Below, piece by piece: positions 4,933 to 64,000 of a DNA stretch of 64,000 nucleotides. Position numbers and translations under genes: made by a program. The stretch is from Aliiglaciecola sp. (GTDB lineage: Bacteria; Pseudomonadota; Gammaproteobacteria; Enterobacterales; Alteromonadaceae): assembly GCF_039982535.1 (NCBI RefSeq), contig NZ_JBDWYG010000039.1, positions 164,743-228,742 on the forward strand, read 5' to 3'. Below the pieces are notes generated by a model, which was not told where the DNA came from, searched no databases, and saw only the letters and a list, made by a program, of their open reading frames with translations. Position 1 is the stretch's first letter. Every line of letters begins with the position of its first letter.

Positions 4933-5407
4933 ATGAAAAACCTCTTATTTATTAAACACTGTTTTGTATTCAAAGACTTAGTAAATGGCCGCTATCTGGC
5001 AACCTAACAATAAATTATAACCGTTATTTTTTTAGTCAAAAACATTCCAAAAAACGATGAAATTTAGCAGGAAAAAATGCCATGTTAGGCTAATATTAAA
5101 GATAGTTAAACGACGTCCTGAAGCTTAAAGTAAATTGTAAAAATGTCGTCTTAACGTGCGCTGTAACTGACTTTCCTACCGAGTATGTTACAGGGTTTTT
5201 TTACATAACGTAAATAAATCGAGGGTGACTTTTAAAAGGAGGCCTATCGGTAAAAACTGTTGGTGTTGAACATGATATATGTTGCACCTTCAATACAATT
5301 AGGTAGTACAATTTGATACACAAACCCGAATTAATTTTGGGCCTTAAGGTCGAATAGAAAGACCAATAAAAAGCGTGGAATTAGGTTCAGCAGGGATGAT
5401 GCTGATA

Positions 5408-12403: not shown

Positions 12404-12982
12404 TTATTTTTTAAATGTGACGGAAAACGTCATTGGTACGGTTAAACCGATGCTTTTTAGACCGGCAAGTTCTTGTAGTTTGGCAATGCCTGGATCCAAA
12501 TCATGGCTTGCGGCCTTTATGAGAACTGGCTTAACGGTTGTGCCATGGAAGCTACCATCTTGATCTTTATTAACACTTAATTCAAGGCTGTAAGGCGCAG
12601 ACTTCCCTTTGATTGTGATTTCGCTATCAAGGGTTACCATTGCAGTGGTGCCCGCCTTCATATCCATTACAGCTTTCGGAATTTGCGCTGTAATCATCGC
12701 CTCAGGAGTATTTTCCACATCAAACAGGTAAGTTTGCATACGTTCGTTACGAATGGGAATGTTGGTTTCCACTGAACTCAAATGTACCGCAGCCTTAAGT
12801 TCACCTGCGTCACTTAGTTTCCCGGATAATTTAGTGAATTTGTGAATTTCACTAATGTGTTCATTCTTGGTTGAAATGAAACTCACACTTGATGAATCAT
12901 TATCGAGGGTCCAGCTTGCATGGGAGAATGCAGCGAATGTTGTCAAACAAACGGCTAAACTTATTAGACTAGGTGTTCTCAT
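12404..12982 (-). CDS. YceI family periplasmic lipid/polyisoprenoid-binding protein
   Basis: Signal peptide; WTLDNDSSSVSFISTK and VETNIPIRNERM. Confidence 0.88.
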   Translation of the reverse strand: MRTPSLISLAVCLTTFAAFSHASWTLDNDSSSVSFISTKNEHISEIHKFTKLSGKLSDAGELKAAVHLSSVETNIPIRNERMQTYLFDVENTPEAMITAQIPKAVMDMKAGTTAMVTLDSEITIKGKSAPYSLELSVNKDQDGSFHGTTVKPVLIKAASHDLDPGIAKLQELAGLKSIGLTVPMTFSVTFKK

Positions 12983-54195: not shown

Positions 54196-54223
54196 TTGAC
54201 ACAACCTTAAAGTAAGGTATGCT
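54196..54223 (+). promoter_or_regulatory. Sigma70 promoter of the cold-shock gene
   Basis: TTGACA-16 bp-TATGCT, implying a 5' UTR of about 140 nt. Confidence 0.65.
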
Positions 54224-54368
54224 TCAAGCAGCTAAGAAAACCTCGTTAAAGATCTACATGTTCGTTGTTATATCGTTGTTCTTCGTCCTGTCGTTTTTAA
54301 GTTCGGTCTCTTTTTATGCTAAACCGCCAATTTTGGCACCCAATTTAATTTTTACAGGAAGATATAAT

Positions 54369-54578
54369 ATGTCTGATAAAGTAGTAGGAACTGTTAAGTG
54401 GTTCAACGAAGATAAAGGTTTTGGTTTCATCGAGCAGCAAGGCGGCCCTGATGTTTTCGCTCATTTCCGTTCAATCGTTGGTGACGGCTTCAAGACTCTT
54501 AAAGAAGGTCAAAAAGTTGAATTCACTATCGGCCAAGGCCAAAAAGGTCCTCAAGCTGAGAACATTCAAGTTATCTAA
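54369..54578 (+). CDS. Cold-shock protein (CspA family)
   Basis: [15 protein letters not shown] (RNP1), VFAHF (RNP2); start MSDK at 54369 with ACAGGAAG RBS; ORF-track N-extension is spurious. Confidence 0.95.
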
Positions 54579-54681: not shown

Positions 54682-55590
54682 TTAACGGTTTTCTTTAACC
54701 GGTACAAATGGGCTAATTCGCTGCCACACTTCCTCTGGTTCTAAGCGTGACTTACTGCCCACGACACAAAATAACCCTGGGCAGTCTTTAGAAAAACTCT
54801 TTTGCGTATCCCAAGTTTCATAGGGGTGGGAGTCGTGTATCAACAATAGTTGAGGGTGAGTTTGAGTGCCTGCCGTGATGTGAAAGTCATCGAGGTTTCG
54901 TTTTTTCATGGCGCATAAATAATAAAGAGAATACTCCGTCCATTTAAGCATCAAGAATCGTGAAATCCGCCAATTTCTTGGATCTTTAGGGTTATGTAAC
55001 GAACAGACGGCTTTTGCCCAATCCTTTTTCCAAAGAGTGCTTAACTCCTCCGTTAACTGTTTAGCCAACTTAGTGGATAATATTGCTGGAGTGACATGCA
55101 TTCCTTTTGATGTGTCTCCCACATTTGCCGACATTTTTAACAGTCGAGCAGATGACTTCCACCATTTAGGGTGAAAACTGCGGGGTTCGTATTGCAACAG
55201 TGCTTTACCTTGGTCAATTAGCTTTTCTATGGACAAGGGTTTTAAACAAATCACATCGGCATCAAAGGTAATATAAAACTCATCTGTAAATTGGCTGTGT
55301 GCGGCTATTTTTACAATTTGTTGTTTCCGCCAGCCGCGCATGTGTTCATGTTGGCTTAATTCTGGAACCAAGTCTTCTTCCGACATAACCACTGGATTAA
55401 ACTGTGACCAGCGCTGCACTTTTTCAGTGACTATCTGTACTTCGTCTGGTGGCGTCACAATCAAAAATTTTGAGAATAAACCGGGTTCACAGAATGCATC
55501 TAAGGTTTTGAATAGAATTTCAGTTCTACCTAAGTCGTCTACATCATAACTACCCCTAACACTCAAAGGTAAAATTGCACCTATTGTCAT
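54682..55590 (-). CDS. DUF6492-like, glycosyltransferase-like protein
   Basis: GWRKQQIVKI and YITFDADV (DxD); no signal peptide. Confidence 0.6.
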   Translation of the reverse strand: MTIGAILPLSVRGSYDVDDLGRTEILFKTLDAFCEPGLFSKFLIVTPPDEVQIVTEKVQRWSQFNPVVMSEEDLVPELSQHEHMRGWRKQQIVKIAAHSQFTDEFYITFDADVICLKPLSIEKLIDQGKALLQYEPRSFHPKWWKSSARLLKMSANVGDTSKGMHVTPAILSTKLAKQLTEELSTLWKKDWAKAVCSLHNPKDPRNWRISRFLMLKWTEYSLYYLCAMKKRNLDDFHITAGTQTHPQLLLIHDSHPYETWDTQKSFSKDCPGLFCVVGSKSRLEPEEVWQRISPFVPVKENR

Positions 55591-55775: not shown

Positions 55776-56678
55776 CTACCAAAAACACCAGTGTTTACAG
55801 TCTTGTTGCTGAAGGAATAACTCGGCGTCTTTACCTTGCAATAATGCCAAGGTTGCCAGCAAGCCACTTTGAATGCATTGCGGGGCTGCCACTGTCACCG
55901 AGCGTGGTGCCTGTTGTATGGGGTAGCCAGTTTTAGGGTTTAAAACATGGCCATATCGCAAGCCATCTTTTAATAGATAGCGGTTTGCATCACCGCTTGT
56001 GGCAAGTCCACCGGTGGCAATATTTACCATGGCTAAGCCCTTAGAAAGATTACTTGGGTCTTCAATACCCACTTGCCAATAAGGATGGTTTTTGCGGGCT
56101 TGTGTTACTTGTATATCACCACCGAAGTTAACTAAAACCGATACATTTGGTGCTAATTGCTGACAAGCTTTAGCAACACAATCAACCGCATATTCCTTAC
56201 CAATACCGCCAAAGTCCAATTCAAAACCTGTGGGTAAGGTGATTGAGTTGGCGGTAAATGATACCTGTTGCCAACCAATAAAAGGCAGCAATGCGGTTAT
56301 TTGTGGGTGTGTTGGGATCCTGTCAGAACCATCAAATTTCCAAACTTTTCTTAATACCCCAGAGGTGATATCAAATAATCCATCACTAATTTGATAACAA
56401 GTATCAGCGAACGTCAGCAGTTTTGCAGTTTCCGCATCAATAGTGACAGCTTGATTGTTGCTCTGATTTATTTCGAACATCAAATTGTTGTGCTGATAAC
56501 GGCTGTATTTGTTCTCGATGCGTTTGCATTCTAGGTAGGCGACTTGTGTAAGCTCTTTTGCGAGTTCGCTATCCCCACTATCCACTAAAATCTCACAGGG
56601 GCTCGCCATCGCAGAAAAGCGACCACAAATATGGTCGCTACGCTTTTCTATGGACAAAGGCAATTCAGAGCTTTGCAT
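55776..56678 (-). CDS. apbE: FAD:protein FMN transferase (ApbE family)
   Basis: FDITSG, LDFGGIGKEYAVD, VNFGGD, LATSGD, YGHVLNPKTG, SVTV. Confidence 0.92.
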   Translation of the reverse strand: MQSSELPLSIEKRSDHICGRFSAMASPCEILVDSGDSELAKELTQVAYLECKRIENKYSRYQHNNLMFEINQSNNQAVTIDAETAKLLTFADTCYQISDGLFDITSGVLRKVWKFDGSDRIPTHPQITALLPFIGWQQVSFTANSITLPTGFELDFGGIGKEYAVDCVAKACQQLAPNVSVLVNFGGDIQVTQARKNHPYWQVGIEDPSNLSKGLAMVNIATGGLATSGDANRYLLKDGLRYGHVLNPKTGYPIQQAPRSVTVAAPQCIQSGLLATLALLQGKDAELFLQQQDCKHWCFW

Positions 56679-56702: not shown

Positions 56703-57995
56703 CTAAAAACTGTAGCTTACCTGTGCTATCACCGCTTTTAAAGAAGGATATAAATCTTCGTCTGCTAATGTCCCTGGTTGTTCGAATCCGGCATTGTCTG
56801 GGGTTTGTTGATAATATTCCAAGCGAAATGCTAACTCGTTACCGTTTTCCAATTGCATACCGTATTTTAGCCCTAGGGTAATTGCTGTCATTTTTCCTAA
56901 CCGGTAGTCAGCACTGGCATGCTCAGGAAGTGCGGTTCCTTGAGACAAAAATGGATTGTAAAACTCTGCTTCATTTTGTTGGTAATAACGAATATGCGGT
57001 TGTATGTAGCTGGTTTCCGATAGGTTATATCGAAAACGAGAGTCAATCGTATGAGAGTCTATATCCCAATCATCCGTAGCAAAACGATAGGAAAAATCTA
57101 CTACACCTTGATCAAGGGCATACTTGGTTTGCCAATACATGCTGTGTTTGGTTCGTTCTGTGGGGCGAGATTCATAGACCACATCTTGGGTTAAACCTTG
57201 CTGATCCACAACACTAAGCACTTTGTAGGGGTCATTGTGATAACCATCCGACATGGACAAACTATAGTTAAACTGCATTAACATGCGACGATTAATCACT
57301 TGGGTGACACCCAACAATAAATCTACCGTATCTTTTTGTTCACTGCCTTGTAGACGAGTGGCATCAAAGGCTTGTTGATAAGCTTCTGAACTGTCGAACT
57401 GCCCGTTATCAACTACCATGCTAGAAAGATCTACGGGGCGACCTCCCACGGGATCTATACTATCAAACGCATAGGAAATGCCCGCCGACAGGGTGGTATT
57501 TCTCTGATTAAGATCCATATCCAGTGAGCCATTACCCACAATGGATAAATAGTCGTATTCTTTGGAAGCTTGTAAACCACCACTAATTCGGTAATTTTCA
57601 CCGATAGGCTGTGTCCATTGTCCACTGGCTTGTACACGGGTATCGTGAAATGTGTCATCTAGCGGTGTTTCACCTGCTTCAACGGTATAGGTTTCATTAC
57701 CTGAAGGACGAGTAAATGTTTGCACACCAGATTGGGCAACCGCGCCTGAGGCAGAAGCTCCGGTGAGTGTATCGATCACCAGTTTGCCATTAAAATAATG
57801 TTCATCGCCGAAGTCTTTGTTGGCATTAAATACCCCTTCAACTAGTTGTACCCGATCTGTTTCACCGTAATACAAAATAGCAGTATCAAACTTCCATTCT
57901 TCGCTGTTGTCTTCAGCTTGGACAGATGTGCCTAACAATGCGCATGAAGCTGCGGCAAGAGTAGCACTGACGTTTTTAGTTTGTTTTAGTTGCAT
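56703..57995 (-). CDS. DUF3570-like outer-membrane beta-barrel protein
   Basis: Signal peptide, DTLTGAS motif, YRFATDDWDIDSHT, SADYRLG, C-terminal aromatic strand QVSYSF; overlaps the DUF4266 stop. Confidence 0.8.
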   Translation of the reverse strand: MQLKQTKNVSATLAAASCALLGTSVQAEDNSEEWKFDTAILYYGETDRVQLVEGVFNANKDFGDEHYFNGKLVIDTLTGASASGAVAQSGVQTFTRPSGNETYTVEAGETPLDDTFHDTRVQASGQWTQPIGENYRISGGLQASKEYDYLSIVGNGSLDMDLNQRNTTLSAGISYAFDSIDPVGGRPVDLSSMVVDNGQFDSSEAYQQAFDATRLQGSEQKDTVDLLLGVTQVINRRMLMQFNYSLSMSDGYHNDPYKVLSVVDQQGLTQDVVYESRPTERTKHSMYWQTKYALDQGVVDFSYRFATDDWDIDSHTIDSRFRYNLSETSYIQPHIRYYQQNEAEFYNPFLSQGTALPEHASADYRLGKMTAITLGLKYGMQLENGNELAFRLEYYQQTPDNAGFEQPGTLADEDLYPSLKAVIAQVSYSF

Positions 57996-58210
57996 CCACA
58001 ACCTCCGCCTGCAAATGAACGACCACCACTTGTGGCTTCTTTACTAAAATAAATGTGATCATCCAAGCCAATGTCTACCCCTTCAGAATCAAGGGCCATT
58101 TCATCCTTAGCGAGTAAATCACGCTCCCAGGGTTGCACACCTAAATTTGCACAGCCTGCAAGTTGCATCACGGCCATAATGGTAATAATAACTATGGTTT
58201 TTCGTTTCAT
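57986..58210 (-). CDS. DUF4266-like small lipoprotein
   Basis: Lipobox LAGC, VQPWERDLLA, HIYFSKEA, C-terminal GGGCGCN. Confidence 0.85.
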   Translation of the reverse strand: MKRKTIVIITIMAVMQLAGCANLGVQPWERDLLAKDEMALDSEGVDIGLDDHIYFSKEATSGGRSFAGGGCGCN

Positions 58211-58223
58211 TTTCTCGGCTCTC

Positions 58224-58679
58224 CTATTGTTTTAGTAGCGCGACGATTTCTTGTTCATAAGATGCGGATTTATCTAAATGAAATCCTTTGTGAGCGACCA
58301 CAAGTTCACCTTGTTTGTTGATCAAGTAACTGGTCGGCATACCTGGAATTTTGTATTGGCTGGCTAAACTGCCTTGGGGATCGTAGGCAATATTGAATTG
58401 CGCAGGGTATTTGCGTAAGAATTTTTGGGCTAATTTGGCATCGGTATCCAAATTTACAGCCAACACCACCAATCCCTCAGAGGCGTATTTATTGGTAATT
58501 TCATTCATCCAAGGAAAGGACTTTCGGCAGGGTTTACACCAGGAGGCCCAGAAATCTAAATATACTACTTTGCCTTTGTAATCACTTAACTGAATGTCTT
58601 GCAATCGAAAGTCAGGCGCAGGTAAAGCACTAGATGGTAAGTGCACTAGTAACAGTAGGGTTAACAGTAAAAGACGCAT
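58224..58679 (-). CDS. TlpA family thiol-disulfide oxidoreductase, exported
   Basis: Signal peptide, LDFWASWCKPC, cis-Pro GMPTSY. Confidence 0.92.
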   Translation of the reverse strand: MRLLLLTLLLLVHLPSSALPAPDFRLQDIQLSDYKGKVVYLDFWASWCKPCRKSFPWMNEITNKYASEGLVVLAVNLDTDAKLAQKFLRKYPAQFNIAYDPQGSLASQYKIPGMPTSYLINKQGELVVAHKGFHLDKSASYEQEIVALLKQ

Positions 58680-58709: not shown

Positions 58710-58742
58710 AGAGTAAGTTATCAACCTTAAGGGAATCTTAAG
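58710..58742 (-). promoter_or_regulatory. QseB/PmrA-type direct-repeat box and -10 for the tlpA operon
   Basis: - strand CTTAAG-ATTCC-CTTAAG-GTTGATAACT-TACTCT. Confidence 0.7.
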
Positions 58743-58797
58743 CTAAATGAATGAGAATTATATTTTTTACTGAGTGGCTGGTTTTACGGTATGAATA

Positions 58798-59511
58798 TTA
58801 AAATTCGTACTCAAGAACAAAGCGCAAAGTATGATCTTTATTGTCGCCATTCAAGCCAGAGATAAAACCTAATTCCCATTTTAATTGTTTTTGGCCTTGG
58901 TAACGTTGAATCCCCATAAATGCTGGACCAATTCCGACGAACTTTTCTCCCGTGTAGATTTCCACTGAAGGTTGTAACCATGGGTGCCAACGATATCTGT
59001 ATTTGAGTCTGAATTGGGGAATAACCTCGCTTTCAGTGTCAATGTCTCTATCGCTTCCCCAGGTATAAGTCAGTAAAAAGTTAGTGGTTAAACTGGTTTG
59101 CCCAAATTCTTTTTCAATCAAGATGCCAGATGTGGCTTCCCAAAGATCTTTGCTATGGGCTTTTTCAACTTCAAACAACGCGCCCCAATCAGCCCAATAT
59201 TGCCCTTGTTCTGTGAGCATCCAGCGAGCCTCGACTTCATAGGAAGCTAAACCAAAATCATCGTTTTCATCTCTGGCGCCCACTAAATAAAACTCTAACA
59301 TCAAATGCTCTGAAACTGCTTTTCCAAAAGCAAAACGTTGGGTCAGCAGATTACCATCATCATTTTGGCGAGAAGCAAATCGCCATTCCACTTCCCGTTC
59401 ATTGGGTAAAACATAGGGGTGGTAGACTTTATCTACTGAGCCTTCATCGGCGAAGGCTACCGGGCAGAGCATTATGTTTACGAGTAAACTTAAGAAACTG
59501 AAAAACCTCAT
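58798..59511 (-). CDS. Uncharacterised exported protein, predicted small beta-barrel
   Basis: Signal peptide, DKVYHPYV, alternating amphipathic strands, C-terminal LEYEF. Confidence 0.7.
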   Translation of the reverse strand: MRFFSFLSLLVNIMLCPVAFADEGSVDKVYHPYVLPNEREVEWRFASRQNDDGNLLTQRFAFGKAVSEHLMLEFYLVGARDENDDFGLASYEVEARWMLTEQGQYWADWGALFEVEKAHSKDLWEATSGILIEKEFGQTSLTTNFLLTYTWGSDRDIDTESEVIPQFRLKYRYRWHPWLQPSVEIYTGEKFVGIGPAFMGIQRYQGQKQLKWELGFISGLNGDNKDHTLRFVLEYEF

Positions 59512-60266
59512 AGGTTTGGCTCCTTATTTACTTTTTTAGTTGAGTTGCTGAAACGCCTTAGCAAAACAGGCAGTATTAACGCGACTAAGTAGATCAAAAT
59601 ATATAATCCTGTGGGAGATGACTCATAACCTATTAATGTGGCAAGAAACTGACCTATTTCATTTTCATCTGAAATGAATTGTTTGCTACTCCAAATTTGT
59701 TGTGAAGTGACTAAATCTGTTTGTTGCAGCAGGTAGGCAATGTGGGAAAACTGACCCACAACAAAGACTAAAAACAGATAGCGCGCTACCTTCACTTTTT
59801 GTAGCGGTTTTAATAGCAATACCAGCAATGTTGCAATGCTGGTACAGATACCAACCCCTAAAATTAACCCTAAAAATAGCGAATGACTCTGCTCATTCAC
59901 ACGCCAGAAACTGACATAAAACAGCAGTAAGTTACTGGCATTAAGAATAATGATACAAGTGACAAACACAGTGGCTAAAAGCCGCCCTGTGAAATTGTAC
60001 CTGAGTTGATGATTCACGAAAAAGGCACCGGCAATAAGGTAACCGATGATCAGCAACAGGATTTTAAGAAACTCAAACCCCAAACCATCGGCGAATTGGG
60101 AAATATAACCGATGTTATTGAACACCAGTAAACAAACAATCGTTCCGCAGCCAATACCCAGCGGTAACCAGTGTCGCCAATTGGGTATCAACACTATTAA
60201 AATGGCTATGGCCCAAAATATCGGCAAAGCATCTTTTAGGAACAGTACCACTGTACTACTTAGCAT
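59508..60266 (-). CDS. FTR1/FtrC-like permease (degenerate)
   Basis: About seven TMs, GLILGVGIC, GQFLATLIGYESSP; follows the cupredoxin; canonical RExxE motifs absent; start at MLSSTVV. Confidence 0.68.
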   Translation of the reverse strand: MLSSTVVLFLKDALPIFWAIAILIVLIPNWRHWLPLGIGCGTIVCLLVFNNIGYISQFADGLGFEFLKILLLIIGYLIAGAFFVNHQLRYNFTGRLLATVFVTCIIILNASNLLLFYVSFWRVNEQSHSLFLGLILGVGICTSIATLLVLLLKPLQKVKVARYLFLVFVVGQFSHIAYLLQQTDLVTSQQIWSSKQFISDENEIGQFLATLIGYESSPTGLYILIYLVALILPVLLRRFSNSTKKVNKEPNL

Positions 60267-60600
60267 TTTGACGCTCCTCAACGGGTACCACGTTAACGAA
60301 GCCAATGGCTGTATTTGGATGATACTCGCCAAAATAACGATACCTTCCTGCATCTAAAGGACCTACATAGATACTCGACCGGCTTTTGGCAAATACGACT
60401 TTTTCTCTATTGAGGTCAAAACTATCAATTTCTTCAGGGGTGTCATCCAGATTGATAAAGGTGATTTTTACTTTTTTGTGCTGGGGAATATCAACTTCTG
60501 GTGGGTAAAACAAATGGTTCCGAATGGTGATAGTAATTTCGTCGATAGCACAGGCTTTAAATGACAGGGCAAGTAACATTAGCATCATGAATTTTTGCAT
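60256..60600 (-). CDS. FtrB/EfeO-like cupredoxin
   Basis: Signal peptide; FYPPEVDIP, EEIDSFDLNREK, YFGEYH; no Cys in the mature C-terminal loop; start at MQKFM. Confidence 0.82.
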   Translation of the reverse strand: MQKFMMLMLLALSFKACAIDEITITIRNHLFYPPEVDIPQHKKVKITFINLDDTPEEIDSFDLNREKVVFAKSRSSIYVGPLDAGRYRYFGEYHPNTAIGFVNVVPVEERQNAK

Positions 60601-60632
60601 GATGTTTTCAAGTACTTTTCTGCGCACGTTAC

Positions 60633-61931
60633 TCATGCCGATTTAAGCTCAACAAGCACACTCAAACCACCTAAGTCTGATTTACCTAGTGTGAGTTTGC
60701 CATCGTGCATAGCGACAATTTGCTCGACTATGGATAGACCCAATCCACTGCCTTCAATTTTACTCTTTTGATGACTTTGACCTCGATAAAAGCGCACTGT
60801 GGATTTATGTTGTTCGTGCTCTGGAATTCCTGGGCCAGAATCATCAACGCGAAGGCGTAAACATCCGTCATCAAGGGTTAAGTTTATGCGTATATCGCTG
60901 TTCTCTGGTGTGTATTTATTGGCATTGCTAATGAGGTTTTGTAGCAAGGTATATAGGGCAAATTCATTGCCTTTAAATTCACAGGACTCACCATTGAGTT
61001 CGATGTTTTGATTCTTTTTATCAATATTCACATAGCTATCGGAAATAACTTTTTGGGCTATTTTGTAGGGGTCACAAATATCAAAGTTAGCTGAGATAAT
61101 TTCAGGGTTAGTACGACTGAGTAGCAAAATTTGATTAACCACGTGGATCATTCTATCTGTGTCTTGTTGTAGCTGTTGAATCTCCTCGTATTCGCAGCCT
61201 TGGCTCTGCTGTAAATTATGCAAATTTATTTTCAGGACACTCAGGGGAGTTCTTAGTTCATGGGCGGCATGGCTGGCGAATTGTTTTTCCCGCTCGAAGG
61301 CCGAATCCAACCGGTTCAACAAGCTATTCAGAGTACTCACCGTGGGCAACAACTCCTCGGGGGTTCGTGACAAAGCAATAGCAGAAAAATCATTTTCTCG
61401 GCGCGTAGACAATTGACTGGTGAGTTCCCTAAGGGGAGCTAAACCGTAGGTAACTAGCAGGAATATGGCTAAGGCTAAAACGGGAATGGCGAGAAAAAAT
61501 GGTGTCATTGCCGATATCATCATTTCTTCGGTTAGCTCAAATCTGGTTTTTAGTGGTTGAGCGACAAAAACCCAAACAGAGGTTTGTTGATTGAAGCTGG
61601 CATAAACCCGCCACCGTTGAGCGTTAAAGTTCTGGTCAGAATACCCTACTTCGAAGGGAGCGATGGCAGTTAAAGGCACATTGCTGGTGCGTAAAACCAA
61701 ATCTTCATCAGACCAACTTTGAATGGCTAAATCTTCATTTGAAGCGGCAATAGTCTCGCTAATTTGCGTGGGTAAGTTAGTCATGCTTTGGGCGAGAGTT
61801 TTCAATTCAGCATCGAATAACACCGAAGACATCTGCATTCCTGAACGATACCCTTGTAGTGCCGCAATAAAACTAATCAGCGCAATAGCACTGATAAGCA
61901 GTAAGGTCAGGTATTTACGAATTGAATCCAT
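60633..61931 (-). CDS. QseC/PmrB-like sensor histidine kinase
   Basis: Two TMs, LFDAEL periplasmic motif, HAMP, FASHAAHELRTPL, NANKY, GSGLGLSI. Confidence 0.92.
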   Translation of the reverse strand: MDSIRKYLTLLLISAIALISFIAALQGYRSGMQMSSVLFDAELKTLAQSMTNLPTQISETIAASNEDLAIQSWSDEDLVLRTSNVPLTAIAPFEVGYSDQNFNAQRWRVYASFNQQTSVWVFVAQPLKTRFELTEEMMISAMTPFFLAIPVLALAIFLLVTYGLAPLRELTSQLSTRRENDFSAIALSRTPEELLPTVSTLNSLLNRLDSAFEREKQFASHAAHELRTPLSVLKINLHNLQQSQGCEYEEIQQLQQDTDRMIHVVNQILLLSRTNPEIISANFDICDPYKIAQKVISDSYVNIDKKNQNIELNGESCEFKGNEFALYTLLQNLISNANKYTPENSDIRINLTLDDGCLRLRVDDSGPGIPEHEQHKSTVRFYRGQSHQKSKIEGSGLGLSIVEQIVAMHDGKLTLGKSDLGGLSVLVELKSA

Positions 61932-62603
61932 TTATCCAGGGTAAGCTCGCTGATTAATGCTATAGCCTACACCACGAACCGTTTTAATAAACTCGTTAGG
62001 TAATTTTTTACGTAAATTATGAATATGAACTTCAATTGTATTGCTTGCCACTTCATCGCCCCATTCGTAAAGCTTAGATTCCAATTGTTGTTTAGATTGA
62101 ATGCGCCCAAGGTTTTCCATTAATGACTTCAGCAGGGTGAACTCACGACGAGAAGTTTCTACCGGCTGATCATTTATAATCAGTAAGTGATGAGTAATAT
62201 CGAGACTCACGGGACCGCAGGATACTAGGGATTGTTGCGAAGTACCTAAGCGTCTTTCCATTACCCGTAAGCGGGCTAGCAACTCTGACATTTCAAATGG
62301 TTTAGGTAAATAATCATCAGCGCCTTTATCTAAACCTTGTATTTTATCGGAGGTTGAGTCCCGTGCGGTTAATATTAATGTTGGTATGTTGTTTTTCTGC
62401 TTGCGGATTTTATCGAGTAAGGTTAATCCGTCCATATCGGGCAACCCAAGGTCAAGGATCATTAAATTACAGTCATCTGAGGCCAGTGCAGCTATGGCAT
62501 CTTTGCCGTTAAAAACACAATTAACCGCATAACCCTGCTTGCGCAATGATTTGCTTAAGGCTTCAGATAAAGCGAGATCGTCCTCGACTAATAAAATACG
62601 CAT
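61932..62603 (-). CDS. QseB/PmrA-like response regulator
   Basis: MRILLVEDD, LDLGLPDMDG, SNTIEVHIHNLRKKL, IKTVRGVGY; start at 62603. Confidence 0.93.
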   Translation of the reverse strand: MRILLVEDDLALSEALSKSLRKQGYAVNCVFNGKDAIAALASDDCNLMILDLGLPDMDGLTLLDKIRKQKNNIPTLILTARDSTSDKIQGLDKGADDYLPKPFEMSELLARLRVMERRLGTSQQSLVSCGPVSLDITHHLLIINDQPVETSRREFTLLKSLMENLGRIQSKQQLESKLYEWGDEVASNTIEVHIHNLRKKLPNEFIKTVRGVGYSINQRAYPG

Positions 62604-62693
62604 AATAGTGGGTTCTTTTTCGTTTGCAGCAATGGCGTAGCATATTGGCAATAGTTTAATTGAATGACAATTTGTATTGTGATCGTCCCTATC

Positions 62694-62726
62694 ATTATAA
62701 GAAGTTTACCTTAAAGTAATCTTAAC
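62694..62726 (-). promoter_or_regulatory. QseB/PmrA-type direct-repeat box and -10 for the two-component operon
   Basis: - strand GTTAAG-ATTAC-TTTAAG-GTAAACTTCT-TATAAT; same geometry as 58710-58742. Confidence 0.7.
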
Positions 62727-62762
62727 GCGGCTTCTTTAGCAAGGTTGTTTCTATGCGCCAAC

Positions 62763-62790
62763 AAAAATGGGCACCGAAGTGCCCATTTTT
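62763..62790. terminator. Intrinsic terminator after ompW
   Basis: AAAAATGGGCAC-CGAA-GTGCCCATTTTT. Confidence 0.88.
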
Positions 62791-62807: not shown

Positions 62808-63458
62808 TTAGAATTTATAACCAACAGTGAGTGAATAAACAAATGGGTCAATATCTACATCAACAGTTCCAGCTGAACCACCATTAGTAAATGTCGCTTC
62901 AGTGCTGATATCAATGTAACGTGCAGAAGCATTAACAAACCAATTGTCATCCAACATATAATCAAAACCAATTTGAGCAGATAAACCAACAGAGTCATCT
63001 AACTCCAAATCATCAAAGCCTGCTTCTTGATTGGCAGCAGTGAATTCTTCACTGAAGAAAATAGTGTAGTTAATACCTAAACCAACATAGGGTTGAAACG
63101 CACTATCGGCTTCTAAAAAGTGATAATTAGCTGAAATAGTTGGTGGTAAATGTTTTGTAGAACCTAAGGCACCAACGGTGTTTAAACCAATATCATGTTC
63201 AAAAGGGGTTGCTGCCAATACTTCAATTGCCCAATTAGGTGACAAGAAATACGCAAAGTTTAATCCCAATTGAGAGTTGTTATCGACATTTACACCAACA
63301 CCAACATCTGCACCGCCAATAAAAACATTACTGCTTGATTCGTCTGGGGCTACGGTAGTGACACCTGCACGTAGGATCATATCGCCAGTTGTATATGCTT
63401 GTGCTTGAGTGGCGCTAAGTGCGACTGCTACCGCTAGGTAAACTGCTAATTTTTTCAT
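62808..63458 (-). CDS. ompW: Outer membrane protein OmpW
   Basis: GDMILRAG, IEVLAATPFEH, KHLPPT, PYVGLGINYTIFF, IDPFVYSLTVGYKF; start at MKKLAV. Confidence 0.95.
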   Translation of the reverse strand: MKKLAVYLAVAVALSATQAQAYTTGDMILRAGVTTVAPDESSSNVFIGGADVGVGVNVDNNSQLGLNFAYFLSPNWAIEVLAATPFEHDIGLNTVGALGSTKHLPPTISANYHFLEADSAFQPYVGLGINYTIFFSEEFTAANQEAGFDDLELDDSVGLSAQIGFDYMLDDNWFVNASARYIDISTEATFTNGGSAGTVDVDIDPFVYSLTVGYKF

Positions 63459-63527
63459 GTGTTTCTCCATCGATATAATGTGTTTAAATTTGATGGAGAA
63501 AGCTTACCCAATTGAATTTTTCTGATA

Positions 63528-63624: not shown

Positions 63625-64000
63625 TTAATTTTGGTATTCGCTGCTTTTTCTAATTTGCCAAACTATTCCTGCGCCAACCGCATAATTGTTGTTTTCCACC
63701 AACAAGGGGCTGTCGCTATTGGCCGCGTTATTTTGGAAGCGATAGGACGCGCTCATGAACATGCGTACAGTTGGAGTAACGTTAAACATGTAACCTGTAG
63801 ATAAGGTAAGGCCTAGATAGCCCGCTTTTGCATCGTATTCAGGCCTTTGCTGAGTGGCGAATTGGGTATCCACTTGATAAAAATAGTCATGTAATTTTTC
63901 TGTGGCCCAAACAGGTGAAACGCTAAACCGGAACCTATCTTCAGATTGAAACGCTCCAACGTATTGATAGGTTAATTCAGGATTCAATACATACCCACGA
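63625..64000 (-). CDS. MipA/OmpV family outer membrane protein, C-terminal part (5' end outside window)
   Basis: WATEKLHDYFYQV, YDAKAGYLG, NAANSDSPLL, GAGIVW. Confidence 0.78.
   Translation of the reverse strand, partial: RGYVLNPELTYQYVGAFQSEDRFRFSVSPVWATEKLHDYFYQVDTQFATQQRPEYDAKAGYLGLTLSTGYMFNVTPTVRMFMSASYRFQNNAANSDSPLLVENNNYAVGAGIVWQIRKSSEYQN

Follow-up and report, generated by a model that had tools for sequence, protein, structure and literature searches.

A shared PmrA/BqsR-type promoter architecture before a two-component regulator operon and a tlpA-apbE operon of Aliiglaciecola

Introduction

The pmra-box consists of two XTTAAY hexamers that lie 5 nt apart and take the place of the -35 at the promoters of pbgP, ugd and pmrCAB, and in the PmrA activation complex as solved by cryo-EM the two DNA-binding domains touch sigma region 4, the beta flap and beta' (PMC10570014). 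The box of BqsR, TTAAG(N)6TTAAG, is necessary and sufficient for binding in electrophoretic mobility shift assays and overlaps the -35 position according to cRACE (PMC4358008; PMC13522522), and the bqs operon is autoregulated (PMC4358008). Here we describe two promoters with a box of this kind in a 64-kb stretch of Aliiglaciecola sp. DNA from contig NZ_JBDWYG010000039.1, the whole of which we call the window. One of them precedes an operon that begins with genes for a response regulator (RR) and a sensor histidine kinase (HK), and the other precedes an operon for TlpA/ResA-like, DUF4266, DUF3570 and ApbE-family proteins. A first-pass annotation of this DNA had stated that PmrA/QseB-family regulators bind CTTAA-type direct repeats near the -35 position, and the published pmra-box and BqsR box bear this out for regulators of the PmrA kind (PMC10570014; PMC4358008).

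DUF3570 is a demonstrated substrate of flavinylation by ApbE and belongs to a family with two [S/T]GA[S/T] motifs. The cluster composed of ApbE, DUF3570, a thioredoxin-like protein and DUF4266 with its CXC motif is recurrent but of uncertain function, and it is often found beside DsbD, from which the thioredoxin-like/DUF3570 system is proposed to receive electrons, and occasionally beside iron transporters; a survey of 2021 counted 227 such clusters with DsbD and a further 316 without it (PMC8238504). That study gave neither a regulator nor a promoter for the cluster, and no regulator of it is known in the literature that we searched.

Results

Architecture of the two promoters

All coordinates of the Aliiglaciecola locus are positions within the window, and both promoters are read on the minus strand. 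The tlpA promoter has the sequence CTTAAG-ATTCC-CTTAAG-GTTGATAACT-TACTCT (58742..58710) and the regulator promoter has the sequence GTTAAG-ATTAC-TTTAAG-GTAAACTTCT-TATAAT (62726..62694), so that each combines a direct repeat with a -10 hexamer at the same distance (Table 1). The start codon of tlpA is located at 58679 and that of the RR gene at 62603, where the protein begins with MRILLVEDD. When we reckoned from the -10 positions, the transcription start sites (TSSs) could reasonably be predicted at about 58703 for tlpA and about 62687 for the regulator. No -35-like hexamer was found 16-18 nt upstream of the -10 at either promoter, and a scan with the sigma-70 consensus picked up neither of them. 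Outside the motif positions, the two promoters have nothing in common.

We then compared the occurrence of the box in the window with the chance expectation. Exact TTAAG-N6-TTAAG was present only at these two promoters, while 0.35 sites were expected, and a third exact match was the tlpA site on the opposite strand, which arises because CTTAAG is palindromic. When TAnnnT at +10 was required in addition, two sites were observed and 0.01 expected. Matches with one mismatch amounted to 12 against 8.6 expected, and the near-boxes at 12580(-), which is intragenic, and at 5165(-) were dismissed, both being at chance level. An extended pattern of 32 nt did not occur at all in shuffled sequences, and we discounted this result as circular because the pattern had been derived from these same two sites. 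The match in architecture is far beyond chance.

Conservation of the box in relatives

As anchor for loci of relatives we took DUF3570, which is more specific than any other protein of the cluster, and kept the best 80 of 469 matches. They come from Alteromonadaceae, Shewanella, Colwellia and Catenovulum and have 55-99% protein identity; identity to Aliiglaciecola sp. SL4, a close relative, is 99%. An exact box was found no more than 260 nt upstream of the tlpA-like gene in 59 of 78 cases, and 12 more genes had a box with a single mismatch, the upstream half-site then being CTAAG or ATAAG in most cases. TAnnnT followed exactly 10 nt past the box at every one of the 58 exact-box tlpA promoters that were scored and at 19 of 23 RR promoters. 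The box is present for each of the 30 RR orthologues at the head of an operon; it was exact in 22 cases, carried one mismatch in 4, and stood before a preceding TPR gene in another 4. In total, 1.53 Mb of sequence (both strands) contained 140 exact boxes, 81 of them directly before a tlpA-like or RR gene, and the 59 remaining boxes were mostly palindromic re-readings of the same sites.

The spacer and the flanks carry almost no information across the relatives. The repeat unit extends weakly to cTTAAGnTT, giving the full form cTTAAGnTT-N2-cTTAAGnTT, and a T-rich tract lies 8-12 nt upstream of the box. The first-pass annotation had quoted both promoter strings on the minus strand exactly as they are present, and the TTAAG direct repeats, the 11-bp period and the exact 10-nt gap to which it drew attention turned out to be strictly conserved. 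The ATT[C/A]C linker, which it had called similar at the two sites, reflects the weak extension of the half-site in the whole family and nothing more, and the relatives do not keep the GT...CT ends of the spacer except for T at the second and third spacer bases. Since the box and the -10 are exact across genera while flanks and spacers are randomised, the pattern is, as judged from these alignments, one of purifying selection on a putative binding site and on its phase to the -10, and not of shared ancestry or recent duplication.

Linkage of the two modules

The tlpA-like/DUF4266/DUF3570/apbE set is present throughout the 80 loci, and about 40 of them carry the five-gene regulator module in linkage with this set, in at least four arrangements: immediately upstream and co-directional as in the window, upstream with intervening genes, downstream and convergent, and downstream and co-directional. 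Shewanella, Catenovulum and one other locus have no more than the RR and HK genes of this module, directly after apbE. The RR-HK pair of Shewanella and Catenovulum has no box of its own and the sole box stands before tlpA, so the operon that encodes the regulator would itself be box-driven.

For boxed DUF3570 operons without a nearby RR, the prediction is that the regulator module lies elsewhere in the genome and has its own box. When we examined three genomes, all three contained an unlinked regulator module with the same five genes, a box and TAnnnT at +10. In Neptunicella sp. SCSIO 80796 the module lies 170 kb away with an exact box before a TPR gene, and in an Aliiglaciecola metagenome-assembled genome it lies about 2 Mb away with one mismatch in the box. 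The box is exact at the module of Alteromonas sp. A081, which stands for the Alteromonas loci without a nearby RR, its own DUF3570 operon not being among the 80 loci. A distant RR beside tlpA in four Paraglaciecola loci looks from its sequence like an ArcA orthologue and was set aside as unrelated.

The gene calls of the first-pass annotation (a PmrA-like RR and an HK; TlpA/ResA-like, DUF4266, DUF3570 and ApbE proteins) were right in kind. It had also proposed that the two modules form one system, in agreement with their being neighbours in at least four different arrangements, and that the regulator controls both itself and the apbE operon. The second proposal has in silico support from the fixed-spacing box, which precedes tlpA-like genes as well as all the RR-headed operons that we examined, the three genomes with distant modules included.

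The adjacent response regulator

PmrA is both the best NCBIfam family and the best PDB match of the RR. The closest solved protein is PmrA/BasR of Klebsiella (KpPmrA; 4S04 and 4S05 with DNA, 8JO2 as activation complex), to which it aligns without gaps. The recognition helix is ASNTIEVHIHNLRKKL in the window RR and ATNTLEVHIHNLREKI in KpPmrA. KpPmrA reads the TAA bases with T187, N188, V192 and H195 (PMC10570014), and the window RR has S187, N188, V192 and H195 at these positions. When we aligned 47 linked RRs, including Shewanella proteins with only about 44% overall identity, residues S187, N188, V192, H193, R198 and R210 were invariant and H195 was present in 43. No covariation of the rare H195S regulators with box variants was evident. 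The helix of P. aeruginosa BqsR/CarR (9YFA) also begins with S-N.

Against the curated families, the RR scored 238.5 bits with the NCBIfam PmrA equivalog (NF007928; cutoff 330) and the HK 183.6 bits with PmrB (cutoff 314), and the values were 196.9 for QseB (cutoff 345) and 188.4 for QseC (cutoff 475), which places the pair outside QseBC. The RExxE motif of BqsS is absent from the window HK and not conserved among 48 aligned HKs, the ExxE motif of PmrB is not conserved in the sensor domain either, and the periplasmic domain shows only a generic 2CSK_N-like pattern. With these cutoffs unreached and the sensor motifs absent, the RR is, by sequence criteria, an orthologue of neither PmrA, BqsR nor QseB.

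Comparison with known systems

The locus shares several features with the PmrA system. Both boxes are hexamer direct repeats 5 nt apart (CTTAAG-N5-CTTAAG and GTTAAG-N5-TTTAAG), and they appear to stand in place of the -35 with a fixed phase to the -10. As at E. coli arnB, the gap from box to -10 is 10 nt, and as in the PmrA system the operon of the regulator is itself boxed. The E. coli K-12 arnB promoter, the classical BasR/PmrA-activated promoter that corresponds to pbgP of PMC10570014, reads cTTAAG-gttaag-TTAAT, 10 nt, TAAAAT, and those of pmrR (10 nt, CATACT) and eptA (10 nt, GAGCAT) fit the same frame at the level of sequence only. The recognition helix is almost identical to that of PmrA, including N188, V192 and H195, and the CTAAG upstream half-site of some relatives resembles the CCTAAG half-site of Klebsiella pbgP. 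On the contrary, the iron motif ExxE of PmrB is absent from the HK, and the partner of the PmrA system in the regulator operon, eptA, is replaced by a cupredoxin-like protein and two family-less proteins. While PmrA targets lipid A modification genes, the main conserved target here is a thiol/flavin envelope redox operon, and no arn or eptA genes are present in the window cluster.

The locus also resembles BqsRS (CarRS) of P. aeruginosa. The experimentally defined BqsR box agrees literally with the sequence at our two promoters; it too overlaps the -35, and the bqs operon is autoregulated. In both cases the two-component system has accessory envelope proteins in its operon, but the accessory genes differ. 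The Fe(II) motif RExxE of BqsS is not conserved in the HK, the helix of the RR is nearer to PmrA (H195/N196) than to BqsR, in which N and H are swapped, and the known BqsR regulon, which comprises polyamines, carO/carP and feo, differs from the one described here. Compared with the DUF3570 clusters of Meheust et al. 2021 (PMC8238504), the gene set is the same and the C-terminal CXC of DUF4266 is kept, but DsbD is missing from the immediate cluster, the rest of the window not having been surveyed for it.

Genes of the tlpA-apbE operon

Pfam matches in the operon were PF02424, PF12094 (565.7 bits), the thioredoxin fold and PF14086, and the operon belongs to the DUF3570 clusters as defined in PMC8238504. 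DUF3570 contains one canonical flavinylation motif, TGAS, and the adjacent second motif is SGAV. The structural model of DUF3570 is all beta with moderate confidence (pLDDT 67, pTM 0.64; strands 85-94), and a loop of low confidence (residues 81-115) in the predicted outer-membrane barrel has TGAS at its start. The best structural matches were all outer-membrane barrels (AlgE, OmpG, FadL and BcsC) with low TM-scores of 0.37-0.46, so that the model supports the outer-membrane barrel as a fold class and not a specific family.

No signal peptide or lipobox was found in 12 ApbE sequences (the window and L001, L003, L006, L010, L016, L026, L032, L049, L056, L060 and L070, these numbers denoting loci of relatives), and there is no space for one in the reading frame. 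ApbE is thus without an export signal, whereas DUF3570, on which it presumably acts, is exported. Past apbE, a gap of 186 nt with a terminator-like hairpin and U-tract leads to a DUF6492 gene; since this gene is found only in the closest Aliiglaciecola relatives (L001-L003), it is probably outside the conserved system.

Genes of the regulator operon

On the minus strand, the order is ompW, its terminator, the regulator box, RR, HK, the cupredoxin-like gene, the membrane-protein gene, the gene for the 237-aa protein, 59 nt, the tlpA box and the tlpA operon. As predicted from its fold, the ompW terminator insulates the regulator promoter from upstream transcription. Neither secondary structure nor a terminator was found in the 59 nt between the two operons, so that read-through may add to the second promoter. 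A MipA-family gene lies upstream of ompW. Only the closest relatives (L001, L002) have ompW in this place, and it is beside tlpA in L004.

The cupredoxin-like protein has no conserved Cys, and hence no type-1 copper site, and contains the conserved acidic motif EEFDSF..LNREK. The polytopic membrane protein shows the conserved motifs R/K-D-A-L-P, GLGIC-S and GY-x-[ST]-P. Its mechanical open reading frame (ORF; 59508-60353 (-)) is too long, and we placed the start at the internal Met at 60266 (MLSSTVV...) because of conservation and the gene calls in relatives (L081-L083). With this start, the gene shares 11 nt with the end of the cupredoxin gene, an overlap that points to translational coupling of the two. 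The 237-aa protein is probably an outer-membrane barrel. Neither this protein nor the membrane protein had a Pfam match at E up to 10 or a real sequence match in a PDB profile search, and their matches to WRAP-T were rejected as spurious. One conjecture would make the membrane protein a divergent permease of the FTR1 type with an FtrB-like cupredoxin as partner; the DNA analysed contained no REGLE-type protein. In some genomes, the regulator operon starts with a gene for a secreted TPR protein of about 210 aa, which separates the RR gene from the box.

Table 1. Promoter elements, genes and related loci. Unless a locus of a relative is named, locations are positions within the window.
Feature	Location	Strand	Remarks
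Box of the regulator operon, gTTAAG-attact-TTAAG	62710..62726 (core 62725..62710)	-	PmrA/BqsR-type direct repeat, 11-bp period
-10 hexamer of the regulator operon, TATAAT	62694..62699	-	Exactly 10 nt past the box; sequence
Box of the tlpA operon, cTTAAG-attccc-TTAAG	58726..58742 (TTAAG-N6-TTAAG core 58741..58726)	-	Exact string match
-10 hexamer of the tlpA operon, TACTCT	58710..58715	-	Exactly 10 nt past the box; sequence, relatives
RR, OmpR/PhoB family, PmrA-like	61932..62603	-	Family and PDB matches
Sensor HK	60633..61931	-	2CSK_N-like periplasmic domain, HisKA, HATPase_c
Secreted cupredoxin-like protein	60256..60636	-	PF13473
Polytopic membrane protein	59508..60266	-	About 252 aa from the internal Met
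237-aa secreted protein	58798..59511	-	Ends ...EYEF; last gene of the regulator operon
Secreted TlpA/ResA-like protein	58224..58679	-	Thioredoxin fold, WCKPC
DUF4266 lipoprotein	57986..58210	-	C-terminal CGCN (CXC)
DUF3570 protein	56703..57995	-	TGAS at residues 78-81
ApbE-family FAD:protein FMN transferase	55776..56678	-	Last conserved gene of the operon
Intrinsic terminator of ompW	62760..62790	-	-23.5 kcal/mol, z = -5.05; hairpin, then U-tract
OmpW gene	62808-63470	-	Upstream of the regulator operon
MipA-family gene	63625-63987	-	Upstream of the regulator operon
DUF6492 gene	54682-55590	-	After apbE
Cold-shock-domain gene	54219-54578	+	
TPR gene	L008 19156-19782 (-); also L010, L012, L027; L081 5280-5939 (+)		Absent from the window
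dsbD	L056, L057, 14229-15987	+	Own exact box, TATTCT at +10; just downstream of RR-HK; 479 bits, cutoff 330
ArnC-like GT2	L012 3108-3910; L020 6075-6883	+	Exact box, -10 at +10
Neighbours of the modules elsewhere (TonB-dependent receptors, haem-oxygenase-like, catalase)	L005 6247-8844 (-); L082 2979-5567 (-); L083 10005-12669 (+); L081 9964-11418 (+)		

Further boxes in relatives and transcript data

When we filtered the 59 other exact boxes for the full architecture, nine were kept. Eight of them belong to three gene types, namely the TPR gene heading RR operons, an ArnC-like GT2 gene (two loci) and dsbD (two Catenovulum genomes), and the ninth belongs to a tlpA promoter that had been attributed to an incorrect ORF. 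The boxed dsbD gene suggests that DsbD belongs to the regulon in Catenovulum, and it would be a coherent member because the thioredoxin-like/DUF3570 system is proposed to receive its electrons from DsbD. The boxed GT2 genes hint that in some species the regulon may include a PmrA-style envelope-glycosylation target. The divergent gene beside GT2 resembles an epimerase in L012 and an ABC ATPase in L020, as judged from N-terminal sequence only.

In other genomes, genes for TonB-dependent receptors were seen beside the modules in two cases, each time divergent from the promoter with the box, and further neighbours were a haem-oxygenase-like gene and a catalase; all of these are weak hints towards iron or oxidative stress.

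Four public sequencing runs contained the sequence, but they were genomic with flat coverage, and three RNA runs under the same organism label held no reads from this bacterium. One metatranscriptome showed low-level transcripts inside tlpA, DUF3570, RR and HK, without ends. The cold-shock-domain gene had the highest metatranscriptome abundance in the region, with a depth of 46 compared with 2-10 elsewhere (marine); the domain spans only residues 56-118 of its ORF, so that the true start is probably further downstream. The organism label of the runs (X1-X24) also has very large PacBio, Nanopore and oligo-dT RNA-seq sets, and it probably belongs to a eukaryotic host, the bacterium being an associate or a contaminant of the host's sequencing project.

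Discussion

We consider it likely that both elements are PmrA-type activator-dependent sigma-70 promoters, and that the adjacent RR activates its own operon together with the tlpA-apbE operon. In the mechanism that we propose, the HK would phosphorylate the adjacent PmrA/BqsR-like RR, a dimer of which would bind the repeat head-to-tail in place of the -35 element, and the bound RR would recruit or position RNA polymerase as in the solved PmrA activation complex. The RR would then switch on its own operon, consisting of RR, HK and the cupredoxin-like, membrane and outer-membrane proteins, which would amount to positive autoregulation. It would also switch on the tlpA-like/DUF4266/DUF3570/apbE operon, a putative envelope thiol/flavin redox module that ends in a flavinylated outer-membrane barrel. 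Binding by the RR, activation rather than repression and the positions of the TSSs are the parts of this scheme that we infer.

Here, we need to consider several points that weigh against this scheme. First, binding, activation and the TSSs rest on sequence, the public RNA runs being without usable ends. Second, the 80 loci are mutually related, all of them from Alteromonadales-type gammaproteobacteria, and the motif is known within that group. Third, the tlpA-like genes of L055, L062, L064, L065, L075, L078 and L079 have no box, some of these loci being on short contigs. Fourth, the score of the RR lies below the cutoff of the PmrA equivalog. Fifth, for BqsR of P. aeruginosa (PaBqsR) a switch between activating and repressing action has been reported (PMC13522522). 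Finally, since regulators of the PmrA/BqsR type share the half-site, a paralogue encoded elsewhere could also use the boxes.

The last point corresponds to an alternative in which the boxes are read mainly or additionally by another PmrA/BqsR-type regulator and the adjacent RR is not the principal controller of the tlpA-apbE operon. The half-site is essentially one and the same for PmrA, BasR and BqsR (PMC10570014, PMC4358008), the ArnC-like GT2 gene, a classical PmrA-type target, is preceded by a box with the full architecture in two loci, and our inspection of the genome covered only the 64 kb of the window. However, the box co-occurs with this family of RRs in every arrangement, the unlinked modules included, the RR-HK genes of Shewanella and Catenovulum are inside the box-driven operon, and the DNA-reading residues of the family are as invariant as the box itself, and we regard control by another regulator as unlikely.

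In a second alternative, the adjacent RR binds the boxes but represses, or acts as a condition-dependent dual regulator, by occlusion of the -35. The box does cover the position of sigma region 4, and repression of some targets under some conditions has been reported for PaBqsR (PMC13522522), but neither promoter has a -35-like hexamer that could be occluded. The invariant 10-nt phase between box and -10 is moreover what an activator that contacts RNA polymerase would require, and the arnB promoter, which PmrA activates, has this geometry too, with the PmrA activation complex solved (PMC10570014). We judge repression or dual control at these promoters to be very unlikely. A chance likeness between stretches of AT-rich intergenic DNA, or what is left of a recently duplicated promoter, in either case without a common regulator, would fit an AT-rich window in which single TTAAG-like words are common, but it is effectively refuted by the spacing-constrained count, by the likeness of the two promoters at motif positions only, and by the conservation of nothing but box and -10 across genera.

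When activation of both operons by the adjacent RR is taken as the working explanation, the promoter type is a textbook one and the mechanism is not new; what is new is a regulator for the uncharacterised DUF3570 flavinylation system. The rigid phasing of box and -10 at PmrA-type promoters extends, with the same 10-nt gap, from E. coli arnB to Alteromonadales. The conserved box combined with a dedicated two-component system also provides a highly specific signature of the regulon (box, 10 nt, TAnnnT).

Beyond this, we raise only tentatively, and as a view about which we are rather doubtful, that the two modules could be one undescribed and self-contained envelope stress system of marine gammaproteobacteria, in which the accessory proteins would help to sense a periplasmic metal or redox cue and the output would be a trans-envelope electron path. 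In the same speculative vein, such a path could run from DsbD or an equivalent through the thioredoxin-like protein and the CXC of DUF4266 to the flavinylated DUF3570 barrel, bringing reducing power to the outer membrane or the cell surface. If the two modules are indeed one system, the box would be the first experimental handle to switch the system on and to find its function.

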